Below are positions 13,212-26,048 of a stretch of 64,000 bases of DNA, piece by piece. Each line of letters starts with the position of its first letter. The stretch's first letter is position 1. Source of the stretch: Verrucomicrobiota bacterium (lineage in GTDB: Bacteria; Verrucomicrobiota; Verrucomicrobiia; Limisphaerales; Palsa-1400). The position numbers were made by a program, and so were the translations under genes. The stretch is from NCBI GenBank assembly GCA_049510745.1, contig JBEKYR010000012.1:64001-128000 (forward strand). The letters are read 5' to 3'. The notes below the pieces were generated by a model, which was not told the DNA's origin, did not search any database, and worked only from the letters and a program-made list of their open reading frames with translations.

Positions 13212-13384
13212 TCTCGCTGCGGGACGAATTCCGCCGGCGGTGGAGAGGTCAGTGGACGCGGGGCACCGTCCCCGAATTAGGGGTTCCGTCGGCGAGATGA
13301 GGGCGGGTGTGCCTCCGGCGCCATTTGTGTCTGGCGCCATTTGTGGCTTTCCGTTCCGGGGGGAATTCGCCAGACTGGGCGGCG

Positions 13385-16300
13385 ATGAAACGCCTGTATC
13401 TGTTTTTCGGTGTCTGGTTCCTGCTCGTAGTGTTCAGGGCCGGCGCCGTGACGCCCACCATCCTCTCCCCACCGGAAAGCGTCACCGTCAACAACGCTTC
13501 GGCCGCCGCCTTCACGGTCGTGGCGACCAACGCGGCCAGCTACCAGTGGCAGTTTCCGGGCACCAACAATCTGCCCGCAGCCACCAACGCCACGCTGAGC
13601 CTGGATAATGTGACCAGCAACCAGGCGGGGAGCTACACTGTGGTCGTGACCTCGTCGGACAGCAATTCCATCAGCGCGACAGCGGTGTTGACGATTGTGC
13701 CCGGAACGATCGTCCAGTTGACCATCTCGACTTACCCGGACGGGAGCAGCAACAGTTTTTTGGTGCAGTTGTTTGACCATGACAAGCCGGCCACGGTGGA
13801 GAACTTCATTCATTACATCAGTTCCGGGGCTTATTCGAATATGTTCTTTGACCGGGACGTGACGAATTTTGTTCTGCAAGGGGGCGATTATGTCACCACC
13901 GATCGAACGAGCAATTATCTGTACGGCGGGCCAGTTTCGGCGGGGGAACCCAGTTTTCCATCGCAAGTGGATAGCGAATTGAACGTGGGGCCGCTGATTC
14001 ACAACACATTTGGCACGTTGGCCATGGCCTTGGCTACGGGAAAACCGGACTCGGCCAGCAGCGCGTTCTTCATCAGTTTGACGAACAATTCCCCGTACCT
14101 GGACACGAACAACGGCGGTTTCACCGTCTTCGGGCGGGTCATATCCAATGCCAATGTCCTGCAGTATTTCAACACCTTGAGCGCGCCGAGCAACGGGATT
14201 TTGGATTACAGTTCGAGTATTCCGACGCTGCCGGTCAATTACGACGGGACCAATACTCCGAATAACGCCAATTTATTCTACTGCGATTTTGCGTTCCAAA
14301 CCACGCCGCCGGTGGATACGAACCCGCCGACGGTTTCGATTGCCTTTCCAGCGCCGAACGCGGCCTTCACCAACGGCAGCCCGTTGACAGTGCAAGGGAC
14401 AGCGCAGGATAATGTCGGATTGGCCGAGGTGTTTTGTGTTTTGACCTCGAGCACGGGCGCCTATGGCGGCAAGAGCCAGACCAATGCCGCGCTGGGCACA
14501 ACCAATTGGTCGCTGGATCTGGTCAGTCAACTCGGAACGATTGAGCCGGGGGTTTACCAGTTGACGGCCTACGCCCAGGACGGGGCGGGCAACCTGAGCG
14601 CGCCGGCAACGGAGTATTTCACCAATCTGGCGCAATTGACCATCATCACCAACGTGGAGGGGAACCTGACAACCAACGCGCCGCAGTACCTGGTGCCGGG
14701 ACAGCAGTACTCGGTGGCGGCGGCGCCGGGACCCGGACAACAGTTTGACACTTGGCAATATCAAGGGGTGGTGTCGATTAACCCGGTGCAAACGTTGACG
14801 GTGGAATCCAACCTGACGTTGACGGTGACGTATCTATCCAACACCCTGCCCGCCGGCCTGGCCATAACTAATCCTGCCGCCGGTTCCCAGGTGCCAAGGA
14901 CCAACACCGGCCTGACCGTTAGTGGAACTCTTCCGCCGTCGGATATAGTAACGCAATTGACCTGCCAGCTTTTTTCCCAATCCAACGCCGTGACCGCCGC
15001 GAAATCCCCAAAGCTCAACGGCACCAACTGGACGCTGGCCGTAAGCAACCTTGTGGGCGGGCCTTACACGATAGTGGTTGTGGCGGAGGATTCGTCGGGC
15101 CGATTCGGATTGGTTTCGGAAAATTTCACGCTCCTCGCGCCGCCTATCATCATCTCGCAACCCTCCAGCCCGACCGTCAATAACGGTTCCGCGGCGGACT
15201 TCACCGTCGTGGCGACCAACGCGGTCGCCTACCAATGGCAGTTTGCGGGCACCAATAATCTGCCCGGAGCCACCAACGCCACCCTGGCCCTCGACGACGT
15301 GAGCACCAACCAGGAGGGTTCTTACACGGTCGTCATCACCGCCCCGGATGGCGAGACGTTGAGCAGCCAGCCGGCGGTCCTGACCGTGGTGCAAGGGACG
15401 ATTGTGCAATTGACAATCTCGACTTACCCGGATGGGAGCAGCAACAGTTTTTTGGTGGAGTTGTTTGACCATGACAAGCCGGCCACGGTGGAAAACTTCG
15501 TCCATTACATCAACTCCGGGGCGTACTCGAATATGTTCTTTGACCGGGACGTGACAAATTTTGTTTTGCAAGGGGGCGATTATGTCACCACTGATCGAAC
15601 GAACAATCATCTGTCCGGCGGGCCGGTTTCGGCGGGGGAACCCAATTTTCCGTCGCAAGTGGATAGCGAATTGAACGTGGGGCCGCTGATTCACAATACA
15701 TTTGGCACGTTGGCCATGGCCCTGGTTTCGGGAAAACCGGACTCGGCCAGCAGCGCGTTCTTCATCAGTTTGACGAACAATTCCCCGTACCTGGACACGA
15801 ACAACGGCGGTTTCACCGTTTTCGGGCGGGTCATATCCAATGCCAACGCCCTGCAGTACTTCAACACCTTGAGCGCGCCGAGCAACGGCATTTTCAATTA
15901 CAGTTCGGGTATTCCGACGCTGCCGGTTAATTACGACGGGACCGGCTTGCCCGCCAACAGTAATGTGTTCTACTGCGATTTTGTGTTCCAAACCACGCCG
16001 GTAGTCGATACGAACCCGCCGACGGTCGTGATGACCTATCCGGCGCCAAACGCGGTTTTCAGCAACGGCAGCCCGTTGACAGTGCAAGGGACAGCGCAGG
16101 ATAACATCGGATTGGCCGAGGTGTTTTGTATTTTGACCTCGAGCACGGGCGCCTATAACAACAAGAGCCAGACCAATGCCGCGCTGGGCACAACCAATTG
16201 GTCACTGAATCTGGTCAGCAAACTGGGAACCATTCAGCCGGGGGTTTACCAGTTGACAGCCTACGCCCAGGACGGGGCGGGCAACCTGAGCACGCCGGCA

Positions 16301-19300
16301 ACGGAGTATTTCACCAATCTGACGCGACTGACGATCATCACGAACGTGGAAGGGAACCGGACAACCAACGCGCCGCAGTACCTGGTGCCGGGACAACAGT
16401 ATTCCGTGACGGCGGCGCCGGGACCCGGACAAGAGTTTGACACTTGGACCTCCAACGGTGTGGCGTCGCTTAACCCGGAGCAAACGTTCACGGCGAACGG
16501 CAACCTCACTCTGATGGTGACGTATCTTTCCAACACGCTGCCCGCCGGCCTGGCCATTAGCAGTCCTGCCGCCGGTTCCCAGGTGCCACGGACCAACACC
16601 GGCCTGACCATTAGTGGAACTCTCCCGTCATCGACCACAGTGACGCAACTGACCTGCCAGCTTTTTTCCCAATCCAACGCCGTGACCGCCGCGCAATCGG
16701 CGAGCCTCAGTGGCGCCACCAACTGGTCGCTGGCCGTGAGCAATCTCGTGGGCGGCCCTTACACGATAGTGGTTGTGGCGGAGGATTCGTCGGGCCGTTT
16801 TGGATTGGTTTCGGAAGATTTCACGCTCCTCGCGCCGCCTGTCATCATCTCGCAACCCGCCAGCCTGACCGCCAATAGCGGTTCGGGGGCGGCTTTCACC
16901 GTCGTGGCGACCAACGCGGTCGCCTACCAGTGGCAGTTTCCGGGCACAAACAATCTGCCCGGCGCCACCAACGCCACCTTGACCCTTGACGACGTGAGCA
17001 CCAACCAGGCGGGTTCTTACGTGGTCGTCATCACTGCCCCGGATGGCGAGACGTTGAGCAGCCAGCCGGCGGTCCTGACCGTAGTGCAAGGGACGATTGT
17101 GCAATTGACCATCTCGACTTACCCGGACGGGAGCAGCAGCAATTTGGTGGTGGAGTTGTTTGACAATGACAAGCCGGCCACGGTGGAGAACTTCATCCAT
17201 TGCATTAAGTACGGGGCGTACTCGAATATGTTCTTCGACCTGGATAAGGCCGGGTTTATTCTGCAAGGAGGGACTGACGGCGCCGTGGACCGCACGAATT
17301 CCACTCCCGGTCTGACCGGGTGGGGCATCTATAGTCAGTACATCGCGGGAAACACTAATTTTCCGTCGCAAGTCGATAGCGAATTCAAGGTGGGGCCGTT
17401 GCTGCACAATACATTTGGCACGCTGGCCATGAGCTTGACTACCGGAAAGCCGGACTCGGCCTCAAGCTCGTTCCTCATTAATTTGGCGGACAATTCGGCG
17501 AACCTCGATTATCAAAACGGCGGCTTCACCGTTTTCGGGCGGGTCATATCCAACGCCAACGTCCTGCAGTATTTCAACACCTTGAGCGCGCCGAGCAATG
17601 GCATTTCCAGCAATGTCATCACAGGTTTTGCGGCGCTGCCCGTCAATTACGACGGGACCAACGAACCCGCCAACAGCAACCTGTTCTTCTGCGATTTCAA
17701 GTTCCTGACACCGCCGCCGGTGGATACAAGCCCGCCGACGGTCGCGATTGCTTTTCCGGCGCCGAACGCGGTTTTCACCAACGGCAGTCCGTTGACCGTG
17801 CAAGGGACGGCGCACGACGATGTCGGATTGGCCGAGGTGTTCTGTGTTTTGACCTCGAGCACGGGCGCTTATGGTAACAAGAGCCTGACCAATGCCGCGC
17901 TGGGCACAACCAACTGGTCGCTGAATCCGGCCAGTCAACTCGGAACCATCGAGCCGGGGGTTTACCAGTTGACGGCCTACGCCCAGGACGGGGCGGGAAA
18001 TCTGAGCGCGCCGGCGGCGATTCAGTTCTTCACCAATCTGACGCGACTGACGATCATAACGAACGTTGCCGGCCACCTGACAACCAATGCGCCGCAGTAC
18101 CTGGTGCCGGGACAGCAGTATTCCGTGACGGCGGCGCCCGGAGCGGGACAACAGTTTTACAGTTGGACCTCCAACGGGGTGACGTCGATCAACCCGGAGC
18201 AAACGTTCACGGCGAACGGCAACCTCACGCTGACGGTGACATATCTCTCGAACAATCTTGCGGCAGGCGTGACCATTACAAACCCCGTGACCGGCACGCA
18301 GGCTTTCGCCATCCAGTCGCTGCTGACGGTGAGCGGCACCCTATTTTCTTCGAGCACGGTCACGCAACTGACCTGCCAGTTTTTTGTCAACTCCAATTCC
18401 ATCTCGACCGCGCAGCCCGTCAACCTCGCCGGCACAAACTGGTCGCTGGCCGTGACCAATTTGGGCAACGGCGCCTACACGGTGGTGGCTGTGGCGAGCG
18501 ACACGGCGGGCGACACGTTTTTCGCCGCGGCCAACTTCACGCTGCTGAACGTGGAGCAATTGACACTCAACGTCGTCGGAGGGGGAACCATCGCCAGCAA
18601 TCCGGGACCCTACGTTGTGCCCGGCACCTACACAGTCAAGGCGGTGCCCAACGCCGGGCAGGTCTTTTACAGTTGGAGCGACGGAGTCACCACCACGCTG
18701 AACCCTTCCAAGAAGTTTACGGTCGTGTCGAACCTGACGCTGACGGCGACGTTCGCCGGCGAGGACAAGTCGTTGAAGGGCATCGCGTTCACCTATCCAT
18801 CGGCGAACGCCAACGTGCCCAGTAATACATTCAACCGGGTGGAGGTAAAAGCTCCGGCATCGCTGAGTGTCACGCAGATGACGTGCCAGTTTTTTTTGCA
18901 ATCCAACGGCGTCACGGCATCGCCTCAATTCCTGAACTTCGATGCCGCCACCAAAAAATGGACGTTGCCCGTGACCAATTTCACGCCGGGGCCTTATGTG
19001 GTCATGGCAGTGGCGTATGACAAGGAGGGCAAGAGCAGGCTGGTGTCGGAGAAGTTTAATCTGCTGGCGAAGCTGGCGGTCGGCGTCCAGGGCAAAGGGA
19101 CCGTGACCGCCGGCTTGAACGGGAAGTACCTGCAGGTCGGCAAGAGCTACCGTATTTCCGCCACGCCGACCGCGGGGGAGGTGTTTGCGTTCTGGACCGG
19201 CGCGGTGGCAAACTCAAACAGCCCGGCGACCACGTTTGTCATGTCAAGCAATACGGTGTTGACGGCGACTTTTACAAACAACCCGTTTCCGTCGGTGGCA

Positions 19301-20278
19301 GGCACTTACAACGGGCTGTTCTTCAATGCGACCAATCCGTCGCCGACCAGCTCCGGGTTTGTCACCTTGACCGTGGCCCGTTCCGGCGTGTTCAGCGGAA
19401 AACTGGTGATGCCCACGCTGACGCTGCCCATTTATCCAAGCAAGTTCCCTTACGCCGGCTCCGTCGAGTTTCGAGCGACGAAGGCATCGGATGACTTGGA
19501 CCTCATCTTCGAGATCGATCTGACGGGCGGCACGGACCAACTGATCGGGGAGGTGAGTCATCGGGGCGCCTGGACAAACCTGCTGATTGCCTATCGCGCC
19601 GCCACCAATCTTTCCAGTTCCAACATGCCCGCACCCGGAAAATACGTGCTGACTCTGCAACCAACCAACGGAAGCGCCGGCAGCCCGACCTCCCCCGGTT
19701 ACGCCGCCGTCACGGTGGAAAAGAGCGGGACGGTGGTTTTGGGCGGGGTGTTGCCGGACAATACCGGCATTTCCAAATCCGTCGGAATGTCAAAGGAGGG
19801 CCTATGGCCGCTCTTCATAGCGCCGGCCGGCTACAAGGGCCGCGGGCTGATCATCGGCTGGCAAACCAACCTGTCGTCGCTTGGCCAACTGGCGTGGATC
19901 AAACCGGCGGCCGGCGGGACCTATTATCCCCGCGGCTTTACGACGAGACTGGATGTCACCGGCGCCGGCCACGTCCCGCCCGAGGCCGGCACAAACTACG
20001 AAATCGTTTTCGGCGGGGGCAGCCTGGGGACCAACGCCGCCGTGACCGACCTTCTGACTGTCAACAATTCCAAACAGTTCGTCCCGGAAGGCGCCACGAA
20101 CAAACTGGAGATTTCGCTCCTGCCCGGCGGCGCGCTGACGGGGCATTTTCTCAATGAGGTCGATGGCAGGACGCTGTCGTTCAAGGGCGCTTTCACCAGC
20201 CCGTCGCAAGGAGGTTCGGGTTTCACGCTGGATACCAACGGCGAGAGCGGCTATTTCAACCTGAGCTTGAAGCCGTGA
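13385..20278 (+). CDS. Giant secreted protein with three tandem modules of Ig-like + cyclophilin-type PPIase + Ig-like/beta-repeat domains
   Basis: Signal peptide MKRLYLFFGVWFLLVVFRAGA. Three copies of LFD.DKPATVENF...QGG...NTFGTLAM...FF/FL...LD...GGFTVFGRVI, plus YQWQF Ig motifs. DNA repeat period about 1.69 kb. Confidence 0.88.
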   Translation: MKRLYLFFGVWFLLVVFRAGAVTPTILSPPESVTVNNASAAAFTVVATNAASYQWQFPGTNNLPAATNATLSLDNVTSNQAGSYTVVVTSSDSNSISATAVLTIVPGTIVQLTISTYPDGSSNSFLVQLFDHDKPATVENFIHYISSGAYSNMFFDRDVTNFVLQGGDYVTTDRTSNYLYGGPVSAGEPSFPSQVDSELNVGPLIHNTFGTLAMALATGKPDSASSAFFISLTNNSPYLDTNNGGFTVFGRVISNANVLQYFNTLSAPSNGILDYSSSIPTLPVNYDGTNTPNNANLFYCDFAFQTTPPVDTNPPTVSIAFPAPNAAFTNGSPLTVQGTAQDNVGLAEVFCVLTSSTGAYGGKSQTNAALGTTNWSLDLVSQLGTIEPGVYQLTAYAQDGAGNLSAPATEYFTNLAQLTIITNVEGNLTTNAPQYLVPGQQYSVAAAPGPGQQFDTWQYQGVVSINPVQTLTVESNLTLTVTYLSNTLPAGLAITNPAAGSQVPRTNTGLTVSGTLPPSDIVTQLTCQLFSQSNAVTAAKSPKLNGTNWTLAVSNLVGGPYTIVVVAEDSSGRFGLVSENFTLLAPPIIISQPSSPTVNNGSAADFTVVATNAVAYQWQFAGTNNLPGATNATLALDDVSTNQEGSYTVVITAPDGETLSSQPAVLTVVQGTIVQLTISTYPDGSSNSFLVELFDHDKPATVENFVHYINSGAYSNMFFDRDVTNFVLQGGDYVTTDRTNNHLSGGPVSAGEPNFPSQVDSELNVGPLIHNTFGTLAMALVSGKPDSASSAFFISLTNNSPYLDTNNGGFTVFGRVISNANALQYFNTLSAPSNGIFNYSSGIPTLPVNYDGTGLPANSNVFYCDFVFQTTPVVDTNPPTVVMTYPAPNAVFSNGSPLTVQGTAQDNIGLAEVFCILTSSTGAYNNKSQTNAALGTTNWSLNLVSKLGTIQPGVYQLTAYAQDGAGNLSTPATEYFTNLTRLTIITNVEGNRTTNAPQYLVPGQQYSVTAAPGPGQEFDTWTSNGVASLNPEQTFTANGNLTLMVTYLSNTLPAGLAISSPAAGSQVPRTNTGLTISGTLPSSTTVTQLTCQLFSQSNAVTAAQSASLSGATNWSLAVSNLVGGPYTIVVVAEDSSGRFGLVSEDFTLLAPPVIISQPASLTANSGSGAAFTVVATNAVAYQWQFPGTNNLPGATNATLTLDDVSTNQAGSYVVVITAPDGETLSSQPAVLTVVQGTIVQLTISTYPDGSSSNLVVELFDNDKPATVENFIHCIKYGAYSNMFFDLDKAGFILQGGTDGAVDRTNSTPGLTGWGIYSQYIAGNTNFPSQVDSEFKVGPLLHNTFGTLAMSLTTGKPDSASSSFLINLADNSANLDYQNGGFTVFGRVISNANVLQYFNTLSAPSNGISSNVITGFAALPVNYDGTNEPANSNLFFCDFKFLTPPPVDTSPPTVAIAFPAPNAVFTNGSPLTVQGTAHDDVGLAEVFCVLTSSTGAYGNKSLTNAALGTTNWSLNPASQLGTIEPGVYQLTAYAQDGAGNLSAPAAIQFFTNLTRLTIITNVAGHLTTNAPQYLVPGQQYSVTAAPGAGQQFYSWTSNGVTSINPEQTFTANGNLTLTVTYLSNNLAAGVTITNPVTGTQAFAIQSLLTVSGTLFSSSTVTQLTCQFFVNSNSISTAQPVNLAGTNWSLAVTNLGNGAYTVVAVASDTAGDTFFAAANFTLLNVEQLTLNVVGGGTIASNPGPYVVPGTYTVKAVPNAGQVFYSWSDGVTTTLNPSKKFTVVSNLTLTATFAGEDKSLKGIAFTYPSANANVPSNTFNRVEVKAPASLSVTQMTCQFFLQSNGVTASPQFLNFDAATKKWTLPVTNFTPGPYVVMAVAYDKEGKSRLVSEKFNLLAKLAVGVQGKGTVTAGLNGKYLQVGKSYRISATPTAGEVFAFWTGAVANSNSPATTFVMSSNTVLTATFTNNPFPSVAGTYNGLFFNATNPSPTSSGFVTLTVARSGVFSGKLVMPTLTLPIYPSKFPYAGSVEFRATKASDDLDLIFEIDLTGGTDQLIGEVSHRGAWTNLLIAYRAATNLSSSNMPAPGKYVLTLQPTNGSAGSPTSPGYAAVTVEKSGTVVLGGVLPDNTGISKSVGMSKEGLWPLFIAPAGYKGRGLIIGWQTNLSSLGQLAWIKPAAGGTYYPRGFTTRLDVTGAGHVPPEAGTNYEIVFGGGSLGTNAAVTDLLTVNNSKQFVPEGATNKLEISLLPGGALTGHFLNEVDGRTLSFKGAFTSPSQGGSGFTLDTNGESGYFNLSLKP

Positions 20279-24011: not shown

Positions 24012-24098
24012 ATTGATGAATTCACCATAGTGCATTCAATTTGGCGGTCAAAGCGAAAGAGGCAGCGGTAGTTCTAATTCGGGGAATTATATACATCG

Positions 24099-24509
24099 TT
24101 ACCCTAAGCCTTGATTTTTTGCGCGTGTCTCGGCGGCTTTTAAGCCAGCGAGCCGCCACTTGCGGCGGAAAGAAGTTTGCCGTTTTTTGCGACTCAAGGC
24201 CGCCTTTATACCGGCATCCTTCATGCGTTTTGACCACTTGACCACTTTTGGGCGATCGCGCATTTCGATGATTGTAGCTGTTGAGATCAAGTCGAGATCA
24301 TGCATCTTGTGGCAATTAGGGCAGAGGATGACTAGGTTTGATGCTGCGCTATTGGCTCGATTTCCGTCAATGTGGGCCACTTCCAGAACGTCTTTAATTC
24401 CGAATCCGCAATGAGCGCACAAGGCGGGATAGGTTGCGAAGGCCAACTTGCGGTAATTGACGCGCTTGGCACTCACGTTACTTGGAGAATTTGTATATTC
24501 ATAAGTCAT
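24099..24509 (-). CDS. HNH endonuclease (zinc-binding) with basic C-terminal tail
   Basis: CAHC...EVAHIDGNRAN...NLVILCPNCHKMHD; ATG overlaps the upstream gene's TGA. Confidence 0.85.
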   Translation of the reverse strand: MTYEYTNSPSNVSAKRVNYRKLAFATYPALCAHCGFGIKDVLEVAHIDGNRANSAASNLVILCPNCHKMHDLDLISTATIIEMRDRPKVVKWSKRMKDAGIKAALSRKKRQTSFRRKWRLAGLKAAETRAKNQGLG

Positions 24510-25360
24510 TGACTAGTATTATGTTGTGAACGTTTATCCTCTTGCTCTCTGAGTTTACTGCAATCTTCTTCCCATTGTTTCTCGGCTTGCCGCGACTTTT
24601 CGAACGCTTCGTCTATTTCTTTGTAAATATCGGCGATAACTCTCTCGTATGCTTGCGTTCTAGCCACTCCAAGTTGATTGTTTTCGGCGTTAAGTTTTTT
24701 GCAAATTCGTTCCGTGAAGTGATTCGGGAATGGCATGGTGCGTTTTCGACCACGCTCTACAACCGCAACGCTGACAGGGCCACCGCAAAAAGCGTCAATG
24801 CCCTTGACGTGCTCAATTGTATCTATCGCCAAAGTCAGCCCTGTTTGCCATGTCATGCGGCTGGCGTCTATTTGACTGAGAAAGAACTTCGATATTCTAG
24901 AGGCAATTCCAATCGCCGCAAATCGGGAACACGGCTGGGCTTGGGCCGTGATTGAGTCAATGGTATAAAGATAGGCTTTATACCTGTAAAAATGGGCGAT
25001 CATCAATTGAAAAAAATTCTCGTCTCGTTCAAATAAAGCCCGCTGCCGATCTTCTGGCATGTCTGGAAGATTATATAAGCCCAACACATTACGATGGAAA
25101 TTTTTGATTGATTTTTGTGCTAAATTTACCGCTGCCCATTCGCTATCTAGGGATTTGCCATTAGCCTCTCTTTTAATGTCATCAATAACCCGGAAGGCAG
25201 GCGCAATTCCACCACAGAATGCAATCAAAGCCCCATTATCTTCAAAATCAATGCTGTATATTTTCAACGCATCGAGTTCTTTCATGCTGCCAGCGGTCGC
25301 TTGACTCTCTCCCGCCATGACAACCGTATCTTTACAGATGACACCCACAATCTGGCTCAT
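24506..25360 (-). CDS. Proteasome beta-subunit-like Ntn hydrolase with N-terminal Ser
   Basis: (M)SQIVGVICKDTVVMAGESQAT...LKIY...FCGG...FAAIGIA...DAFCGGPVSVAVV parallels the 20S beta-subunit pattern. GGAGG lies shortly upstream of ATG 25360. Confidence 0.72.
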   Translation of the reverse strand: MSQIVGVICKDTVVMAGESQATAGSMKELDALKIYSIDFEDNGALIAFCGGIAPAFRVIDDIKREANGKSLDSEWAAVNLAQKSIKNFHRNVLGLYNLPDMPEDRQRALFERDENFFQLMIAHFYRYKAYLYTIDSITAQAQPCSRFAAIGIASRISKFFLSQIDASRMTWQTGLTLAIDTIEHVKGIDAFCGGPVSVAVVERGRKRTMPFPNHFTERICKKLNAENNQLGVARTQAYERVIADIYKEIDEAFEKSRQAEKQWEEDCSKLREQEDKRSQHNTSQ

Positions 25361-25449
25361 TGGCACCCTCCATTTCTTAAAAAAGGGCGGCGGCTTTGGT
25401 TGCGGAAACCTGTAAGGAGTGAATGGACGTTTTTAACGGAGTCATTCAT
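25357..25449 (-). other. 30-codon upstream ORF / frameshifted leader of the Ntn hydrolase
   Basis: MNDSVKNVHSLLTGFRNQSRRPFLRNGGCQ*; its TGA overlaps the downstream ATG. Preceded by TTGTCG-16-TACCAT. Confidence 0.4.
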
Positions 25450-25592
25450 ACCGCCAATGGTAAACGCTGGAATCGCTGCGACAAGACTGAATATCTGATA
25501 GCGGGGCATTATTCATCGCAACACACTAATCCGCAGCGACTTCCGCAGAGGTAACGTTGTATATAATTCCCCTAATTTGAATTGCGGTTAGC

Positions 25593-26048
25593 TCATGCTT
25601 CAGGCTGCCATTCCGTTTCCGCAAATATGGTGTAAAGAAGACTCTGCCCGCTGTCTATTGCCATCCCTTCCAGCCGGGAGGAGATAACCACATTGAGAAA
25701 CCTGCTCAGAGCGAAAGGGGTGTGTCGCTCATCGACGGAGATGATTTGCGCCAACTTGTTCGCAGAAAGGCAAGCCAGAATGCGGTAATACTCCTCTAAT
25801 GCAGGCGCATCCGCGAGCGCCTGTGGATGGGCGAACACTTCGCTGGGTACGAAGTCAAGGAGTTGCGCGGTCTGGCGAGCCAGATTGGAAATGCAAAGTT
25901 CATCCCAATCCCAAACAAGGTTTCTCCACATTGCGCGCTGGGCTATCTCTCGCAGTTGCTCAAACCGGGATGCTTGGATGCAGTGCCAGAAACTGCGAGA
26001 CCGCGCCAGGAATTGCTCCTGGAGCGCAGAGGTAATGTCTTGAGTCAT
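25593..26048 (-). pseudogene. Probable truncated N-terminal part of an XcyI-family restriction endonuclease
   Basis: 151 aa with RSRSFW...WDWDELCIS...EVFAHPQAL...YYRILACLS...LSRFLNVVIS, resembling from memory the XcyI-family N-terminal half. Ends before any catalytic region; ATG overlaps the trpA stop. Confidence 0.45.

Follow-up and report, generated by a model that had tools for sequence, protein, structure and literature searches.

Between trpA and manC, the genome of this Verrucomicrobiota bacterium contains two linked genes, one for a proteasome-beta-like Ntn hydrolase and the other for an HNH nuclease, and the question that the locus raises is whether the two proteins act together or merely travel together. 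A sequence-only reading had taken the pair for a module, possibly of anti-phage or abortive-infection defense, in which the proteasome-fold protein controls the nuclease. Analysis of the window (here, the whole 64,000-nucleotide stretch of DNA) and of the homologs of both genes upheld the coupling of the two genes but not their interpretation as a defense module: the pair is the cargo of a cassette of the IS1595 family.

The two genes and their surroundings

Both ORFs, their ATGA overlap (24509-24506) and the AT-richer patch in which they lie were found as that reading had described them (Table 1). The GC content is 44.8 % for the protease gene and 49.6 % for the HNH gene (46 % for the pair), compared with 63-64 % for the neighboring manC and trpA and 60.3 % for the genome overall. 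A promoter scan yielded no more sites than were found in shuffled sequences. Elsewhere in the window, inspection of the ORF list by eye indicated a protein of 2323 aa that contains three repeated cyclophilin-like and Ig-like units (13307-20278, plus strand).

Table 1 Features of the region between manC and trpA, in window coordinates
Feature	Position	Strand	Basis
Target-site duplication, left copy, CTAATTCG, differing from the right copy at one position	24074..24081	.	Sequence
Terminal inverted repeat, IS1595 family, GGG type	24082..24103	+	Matches to the ends of L016 and L063
HNH nuclease, 136 aa, last passenger of the cassette	24099..24509	-	PF01844, homolog clusters, 30-sequence alignment
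Proteasome-beta-like Ntn hydrolase, 284 aa, first passenger of the cassette	24506..25360	-	PF00227, AlphaFold2, Foldseek
GGAGG, ribosome-binding-site-like, 6 nt before the ATG at 25360	25367..25371	-	Sequence; putative function
Second terminal inverted repeat	25550..25571	-	Arm-to-arm match, 29/32
Right copy of the target-site duplication, CTAATTTG	25572..25579	.	Sequence
Remnant of an XcyI-family restriction endonuclease, N-terminal, 151 aa, outside the cassette	25593..26048	-	Homology to proteins of genomes G707 and G705

A transposase-less IS1595-family cassette

The segment 24082-25571 (1490 bp), which brackets exactly the protease and HNH genes, is a non-autonomous cassette of the IS1595 family (mobile insertion cassette, MIC) inserted in the trpA-manC slot. 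Its repeat arms match at 29 of 32 positions, whereas 30 base-shuffled sequences reached no more than 24 matches and 13 other stretches of 2.5 kb from the window reached 22-27. The two arms are the sole matches to the repeat in the whole genome at up to 6 mismatches. The flanking target duplication is equal at 7 of 8 positions, and CTAATTTG is perfectly duplicated around four other elements (L070, L146, L147 and L017). Over 24-26 nt, the cassette ends share 96 % identity with those of the transposase-bearing L016 and L063, both of which are complete elements with a protease-family gene followed by a transposase; these two transposases group together, and that of L016 is assigned to IS1595 by both NCBIfam and Pfam. 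According to the description of the family in PMC8101967, IS1595 members usually generate 8-bp target duplications, and the term MIC is applied in PMC3129680 to cassettes with repeats and passengers but without a transposase. The window cassette resembles the IS1595 MICs of these descriptions in that its repeats start with GG, are flanked by an 8-bp duplication and enclose passengers with no transposase of their own; its relatives resemble the transporter ISs described for IS1595 in that they carry a DDE_Tnp_IS1595 transposase with an N-terminal zinc ribbon. Alternative readings of the repeat as a dif/Xer or integron site were dropped because it matched the ends of IS1595 elements with duplications.

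The order in the window is repeat, protease, HNH, repeat, compared with repeat, protease, transposase, further passenger, repeat in the complete relatives. No transposase remnant was detected in the cassette by a transposase profile in six frames (best E 0.54). The cassette is present in single copy in the host genome (94 % complete), in which two IS1595 transposases were found, each 34 % identical to the GGG-type one, and none of the matching group. Loss of the transposase would have brought the first and last passengers together, and the ATGA overlap would then reflect compact packing of the cassette, because protease and transposase genes overlap in several relatives. A search for an exact empty site of the cassette returned none, and four low-coverage DNA runs yielded fragments alone, with no joint across the cassette; in three of the four, other contigs share just the repeat. 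We also observed that the target CTAATTTG is common to L070, L146, L147, L148 and L017, which include GGG-type elements and one of another type, that it often occurs in the context GTC-CTAATTTG-AA, and that the 8-mer occurs just 35 times in the 5.6-Mb host genome.

An older occupant of the trpA-manC slot

The low-GC patch continues beyond the repeats into a third ORF (25593-26048) that overlaps the trpA stop. Its product is 48-49 % identical to 310-aa proteins of G707 and G705, which follow a DNA methylase in the same trpA-manC slot; the one that was scanned, from G707, matches the Pfam family RE_XcyI with an E value of 1e-12. Homologs of this ORF are found in the slot in four genomes of the family, as a 310-aa protein in two of them, and in G666, of the same genus, trpA lies directly against manC, with ~77 nt between the matches. 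From this comparison of G666, G707 and G705, the low-GC patch is therefore composed of two layers, a restriction-gene remnant, which is the older occupant, and the cassette. As a separate observation, the slot (loci L103, L104, L105 and L106) is an accessory hotspot in this bacterial family; it is empty in G666, in G707 and G705 it holds a restriction-modification pair of the XcyI type, and in the window, G637 and G714 it contains a shortened endonuclease gene.

Association of the protease family with IS1595 elements

The orphan proteasome-beta family to which the 284-aa protein belongs is usually encoded by the first gene in IS1595 elements, the transposases of which belong to at least four groups. 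We gathered 62 loci, 61 of which contain a protease-family gene; at 90 % identity and with the window excluded, these form 51 clusters. An IS1595 transposase is encoded within 2 kb of the protease-family gene in 22 of the 51, and in 18 of the 27 clusters with at least 2 kb of downstream and 400 nt of upstream sequence. In 26 of the 51 clusters, the 350 nt upstream of the protease contain a repeat-like motif (24 of 3000 genome stretches by chance), a count that is not independent because the motif was derived from these same loci. Paired repeats with an 8-bp duplication are present in 14 of the 35 clusters with enough flank, and in 13 the duplication is perfect. Six of the 27 long-flank clusters have neither transposase nor repeat, and one cluster lies in an element with Rep and integrase genes. 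In a tree with long branches, the protease family occurs with four transposase groups, which match four repeat types.

The family is rare: in the order it was found in 8 of 301 genomes, and in a phylum sample in 1 of 401, with IS1595 transposases in 42 of the same 301 genomes of the order. The named records among the gathered protease loci are Verrucomicrobiota. Searches of plasmids (P0001) and phages (P0053) yielded no match, and viral contigs hold one protease-family locus. Separately, CGG-type IS1595 elements were seen exactly 8 nt from a conserved, GTCACCAGTACTGGTGAC-like palindrome in 11 loci (L018, L019, L020, L024, L030, L037, L046, L047, L051, L067 and L068), an arrangement that suggests target-specific insertion next to a short repeat; the host genome has three such palindromes.

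Fold, active site and relatives of the proteasome-like protein

The Ntn fold postulated from the sequence was borne out by three methods. The 284-aa protein matches Pfam PF00227 over the cut-off (E 8e-13), its AlphaFold2 model, built from a 55-sequence alignment, has a pLDDT of 95.8, and Foldseek ranks archaeal beta subunits and Anbu best (E ~3e-12); Pfam, model and structure search agree on the four-layer beta-subunit fold. All the motifs quoted earlier (S1-QIVGVICKD, E17, K32, FCGG, FAAIG-IA and DAFCGG) are present in the translation, and the charged helical tail corresponds to a single predicted C-terminal helix of 69 residues (213-281). The protein is also, as had been proposed, neither a housekeeping proteasome subunit nor HslV: its best family match, the archaeal beta equivalog, reaches 39 bits against a cut-off of 224, and the HslV family 22 bits against 137. 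In mature numbering, the catalytic set consists of Ser1, Glu17, Lys32 and Gly49. In the model, 21 residues that include a helix (103-111) are inserted between H2 and the strand that follows. The H3/H4 insertion is lacking, residues 146-203 aligning without gaps to archaeal beta subunits, with an 8-residue linker.

A full search (E up to 0.001) produced 405 representatives of the family at 50 % identity. The nearest non-self relative of the window protein is 39 % identical, a word-indexed protein search with it returned only itself, and in a quick version of the tree it is placed on a long branch of uncertain position. Residue conservation was counted in 149 listed homologs, the window protein itself excluded. 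The first position is occupied by Thr in 130 homologs and by Ser in 11; Thr1Ser proteasomes retain activity. Asp/Glu17 and Lys33 are each kept in 147 of the 149 and the equivalent of Gly47 in 144, and the window protease retains every invariant column of the family in an uninterrupted reading frame. Because Met or Val precedes Thr/Ser1 in 139 of the 141 homologs that have either residue, which we read as ATG and GTG starts, the family appears to be made without a propeptide. Cys occupies the Ser169 site in 140 of the 149, and the Ser129 site is variable (Cys 66, Ser 28, Ile 28); the window copy has Ile there. Longer versions of the protein that arose by fusion were looked for in the family and none was found, which is weak evidence.

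In their survey, Fuchs, Alva and Lupas (2021; PMC8665760) distinguished 22 groups of orphan proteasome homologs and reported no suggestive genomic context for them. Compared by the published description, the window protease fits one of these, the PHI group (about 53 sequences): it is closest to archaeal beta subunits, has a long insertion after H1/H2 and a C-terminal helix, lacks a propeptide and belongs to a family present in the PVC group. The missing H3/H4 insertion sets PHI, and the window protease, apart from PMI-2 to PMI-6 as these are described. Unlike PHI as reported, the family analyzed here comprises the 405 representatives mentioned above and has a clear IS1595 context.

The protein shares with archaeal 20S beta subunits (PF00227, TIGR03634; 1j2q, 1pma, 3h4p) the fold, the Thr/Ser1-Asp/Glu17-Lys33 set, Gly47 and Asp166, but differs from them in the absence of a propeptide and of an adjoining alpha partner, in the extra helix and the 69-residue tail and, at the level of the family, in the Cys at the Ser169 site and the variable Ser129 site. 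With Anbu (5nyw, 5lox) it has in common the long C-terminal helix H5 and the lack of an ATPase partner. The Anbu operon, as presented in PMC5666114, consists of transglutaminase, ATP-grasp and Alpha-E genes, and none of these partners was detected (E 1e-4) among 147 ORFs neighboring the protease family. Anbu gives the highest query TM-scores of the listed Foldseek matches (0.60-0.64), but the window protease is only 9-14 % identical to it.

Connectase, an archaeal protein ligase to which the sequence-only reading had drawn a parallel, is another proteasome-like family, and it has Ser1, as does the window copy. This parallel is weak because Ser1 is a minor variant in a family that mainly has Thr1 and the model keeps H1/H2 and has no S3/S4 insertion; connectase is described as lacking H1/H2 and carrying a two-helix insertion at S3/S4 (PMC8665760).

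Probable exchange of cargo and possible role of the protease

In six pairs of elements, the transposases are 90-95 % identical and the proteases only 36-44 % identical, and across 20 elements protease and transposase identity are uncorrelated (rho 0.09 over 190 non-independent pairs). Such near-identical transposases with dissimilar proteases point to swapping of the protease cargo between elements. Moreover, the corresponding slot of the GGG-type element L146 is occupied by a proteasome-like gene that is far more distant (E 3e-10), and among the nine two-ended GGG-type elements seen, the window included, five start with a proteasome-like gene (one of them a fragment). The other cargo of this repeat type comprises a type IIG restriction-modification enzyme (L155), a methylase-Mrr fusion (L016) and, in a second transposase-less cassette with the same repeat type and target (L147:507-1710), a single trypsin-like protein that matches the PADLOC candidate PDC-S45 (E 1.5e-22). 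On a viral contig, a TnpB/Cas12f-like nuclease lies alone between two GGG-type repeats, without a target duplication (L152:2260-3494). Another viral contig contains a 62-bp miniature element with the same repeat type and a perfect 8-bp duplication (L153:1649-1710). Most of the 147 ORFs that neighbor the protease family, out of 166 candidates of which 19 short or distant ones were left out, have no Pfam family.

We favor, with reasonable though far from complete confidence, the explanation that the locus is a transposase-less IS1595 cassette whose first passenger is a member of the orphan protease family that usually opens such elements. On the grounds of fold and conserved residues, removal of Met would expose Ser1, which together with Glu17 and Lys32 would act as an N-terminal-nucleophile peptidase, without a propeptide or a dedicated ATPase. 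As in Anbu, subunits are probably held together by the long C-terminal helix, and the helix inserted at the pore-loop position probably restricts the range of substrates that can reach the active site. A role in genetic conflict is plausible because the same repeat type carries restriction-modification enzymes and a candidate defense protease, so that the defense flavor of the original proposal survives just indirectly, through the other cargo of this element type and not through a fixed protease-HNH pair; the suggested PADLOC check gave no match for the protease family itself. We would therefore suggest, tentatively and as a possibility that falls somewhat short of even, that the protease is a substrate-specific conflict protease directed against phages or rival mobile elements, which would pay for the carriage of the element, and such a role would be why it is swapped often. 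A bolder proposal, which we consider doubtful but worth stating, is that in these bacteria IS1595 elements reserve an exchangeable first slot for a polymorphic proteasome-fold conflict protease that counters phages or keeps out rival elements, here deployed with an HNH nuclease; the slot would then hold a transposon-spread, self-assembling Thr/Ser protease with a specificity diversified by cassette swapping.

The protease gene is often the first inside the repeat, overlapping or within ~90 nt of the start of the transposase gene, and this position, along with its presence with four transposase groups, might mean instead that the protease serves the transposon, by processing, turning over or stripping the transposase or by limiting copy number. 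That is improbable given that protease identity does not track transposase identity and that the protease gene is intact both in the transposase-less window cassette and in the Rep/integrase element. Furthermore, the protease is not needed by the IS1595 family, because just 3 of 30 sampled IS1595 loci in the order carry it within 1.5 kb and the other 27 do not.

The HNH nuclease is an exchangeable fellow passenger

The 136-aa protein matches Pfam HNH (PF01844) over the cut-off (E 7e-5), has a CxxC/CPNCH zinc site and a very basic tail, and contains three residues (His46, Asn58 and His67) that do not vary across an alignment of 30 sequences. Its relatives form a large, tight family of 868 clusters, with strong conservation and a repeated basic tail motif. 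The generic zinc core is shared with HNH proteins of defense systems (Zorya II ZorE, Septu PtuB, McrA-like), but the matches span ~40 residues and lie far below the cut-offs (19.6 bits vs 600 for ZorE), and none of the partner genes of these three systems is present at the window HNH. We left out 16 viral loci retrieved with a single-HNH query, which are distant generic HNHs.

The ATGA coupling within a common cassette and the integrity of both genes would suit a fixed two-gene defense module that acts by abortive infection, with the HNH nuclease activated or released by the protease. Also compatible with it are the C-termini of close HNH homologs: the stop and last codons of the window HNH gene are supplied by the terminal inverted repeat, and 12 of 119 homologs end in the same Leu-Gly-stop, so that, judging from these endings, cassettes of this kind may repeatedly carry members of an HNH subgroup at their ends. 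A fixed module is not supported, however, and fails the check that the sequence-only reading had set for it, because an HNH-family profile (120 members) matched none of the 62 loci fetched for the protease family, most of them with a motif of the main subgroup rather than of the window's own, which biases the sample, and because the homologs of the HNH gene lie elsewhere without the protease. Pfam likewise detected no HNH in the 147 neighboring ORFs, and no protease gene was seen near the five other HNH-family loci, in 4 genomes of the order (out of 301) and one viral contig. In these 4 genomes, the 1.5 kb around the HNH gene contain neither protease nor transposase nor repeat, and none of the 4 is among the 8 with the protease family; the HNH family was not found in 30 other genomes of the family of the window organism. 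The two genes also appear to have different histories, since the best listed HNH relatives are 64-84 % identical and no relative of the protease exceeds 39 %. The module that the sequence-only reading envisaged is thus quite unlikely, and for the family as a whole it is close to refuted; the HNH gene is an exchangeable fellow passenger, whose product would be an independent nuclease of the same general kind. In passing, we noticed by eye, from translations, that in L077 and L079 the HNH gene lies inside nuo-operon-like clusters with NADH-dehydrogenase-like neighbors and adjoins toxin-antitoxin-like genes (PIN-like or HEPN/nucleotidyltransferase-like).

Other copies and the proteasome of the host genome

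The host genome contains four protease-family genes (in the window and on contigs C24, C1 and C5), three of which lie just inside an IS1595-type end. The C24 gene belongs to a complete 2251-bp element, and the C1 gene follows a single repeat, for which a search found no partner. The C5 gene is part of a small integrated element (L004, G000:C5:110234-114085) that also encodes a rolling-circle Rep and a tyrosine integrase and, by eye, adjoins a tRNA-like sequence. A lone extra IS1595 end stands back to back with the complete element on C24 (G000:C24:31700-31734) and suggests an earlier insertion at the same spot.

The full catalytic set and the lack of an ATPase partner would be in keeping with a general ATP-independent helper in proteostasis or stress that benefits the host, and such roles are among those proposed for orphan proteasome homologs in PMC8665760. 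We regard this as very unlikely, given how rare and patchy the family is in the order and in the phylum sample and how fast it diverges. In addition, the host has its own proteasome operon, of the actinobacterial type (G000:C5:125315-128293), which encodes a beta subunit with a propeptide, an alpha-like subunit and the Pup ligase PafA. A link of the family to hosts with Pup-proteasome systems was also considered and rejected: no dependence on Pup systems is seen, because the Pup ligase is present in 4 of the 8 carrier genomes and in 138 of the 301 genomes of the order. Least credible is that the window copy is a passenger in decay, catalytically weak and currently without a role, as the lost transposase, the mismatch in the duplication, Ser1, the Ile at the Ser129 site, the long branch and the truncated restriction gene nearby might suggest, since the frames are uninterrupted, the invariant columns are kept, the model is predicted with high confidence, and Ser1 and Ile also occur in other intact homologs.

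Implications

The present analysis contributes the swapping figures, the target preferences, the division into four repeat types and the negative result on HNH linkage. Unlike the MICs in the literature that we found, as far as they are described there, the elements analyzed here have a proteasome-fold passenger, apparently swapped, as a recurrent occupant of the first slot in four transposase groups, and those of the GGG type have a preferred target. A search of titles and abstracts, which left subscription journals largely outside, found no published link of proteasome-like proteins to IS1595, either as passengers or in defense; PMC13022661 cites the 2021 survey of orphan proteasome homologs and, in the text concerned, adds nothing further on this point.

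The specific protease-HNH pair of the window is less important than the sequence-only reading supposed. The regular place in IS1595 elements, together with the combination of near-identical transposases with very different proteases, gives one family of orphan proteasome homologs a testable setting. If the role is one of defense, insertion sequences would be the vehicle by which this proteasome-fold conflict protein spreads.
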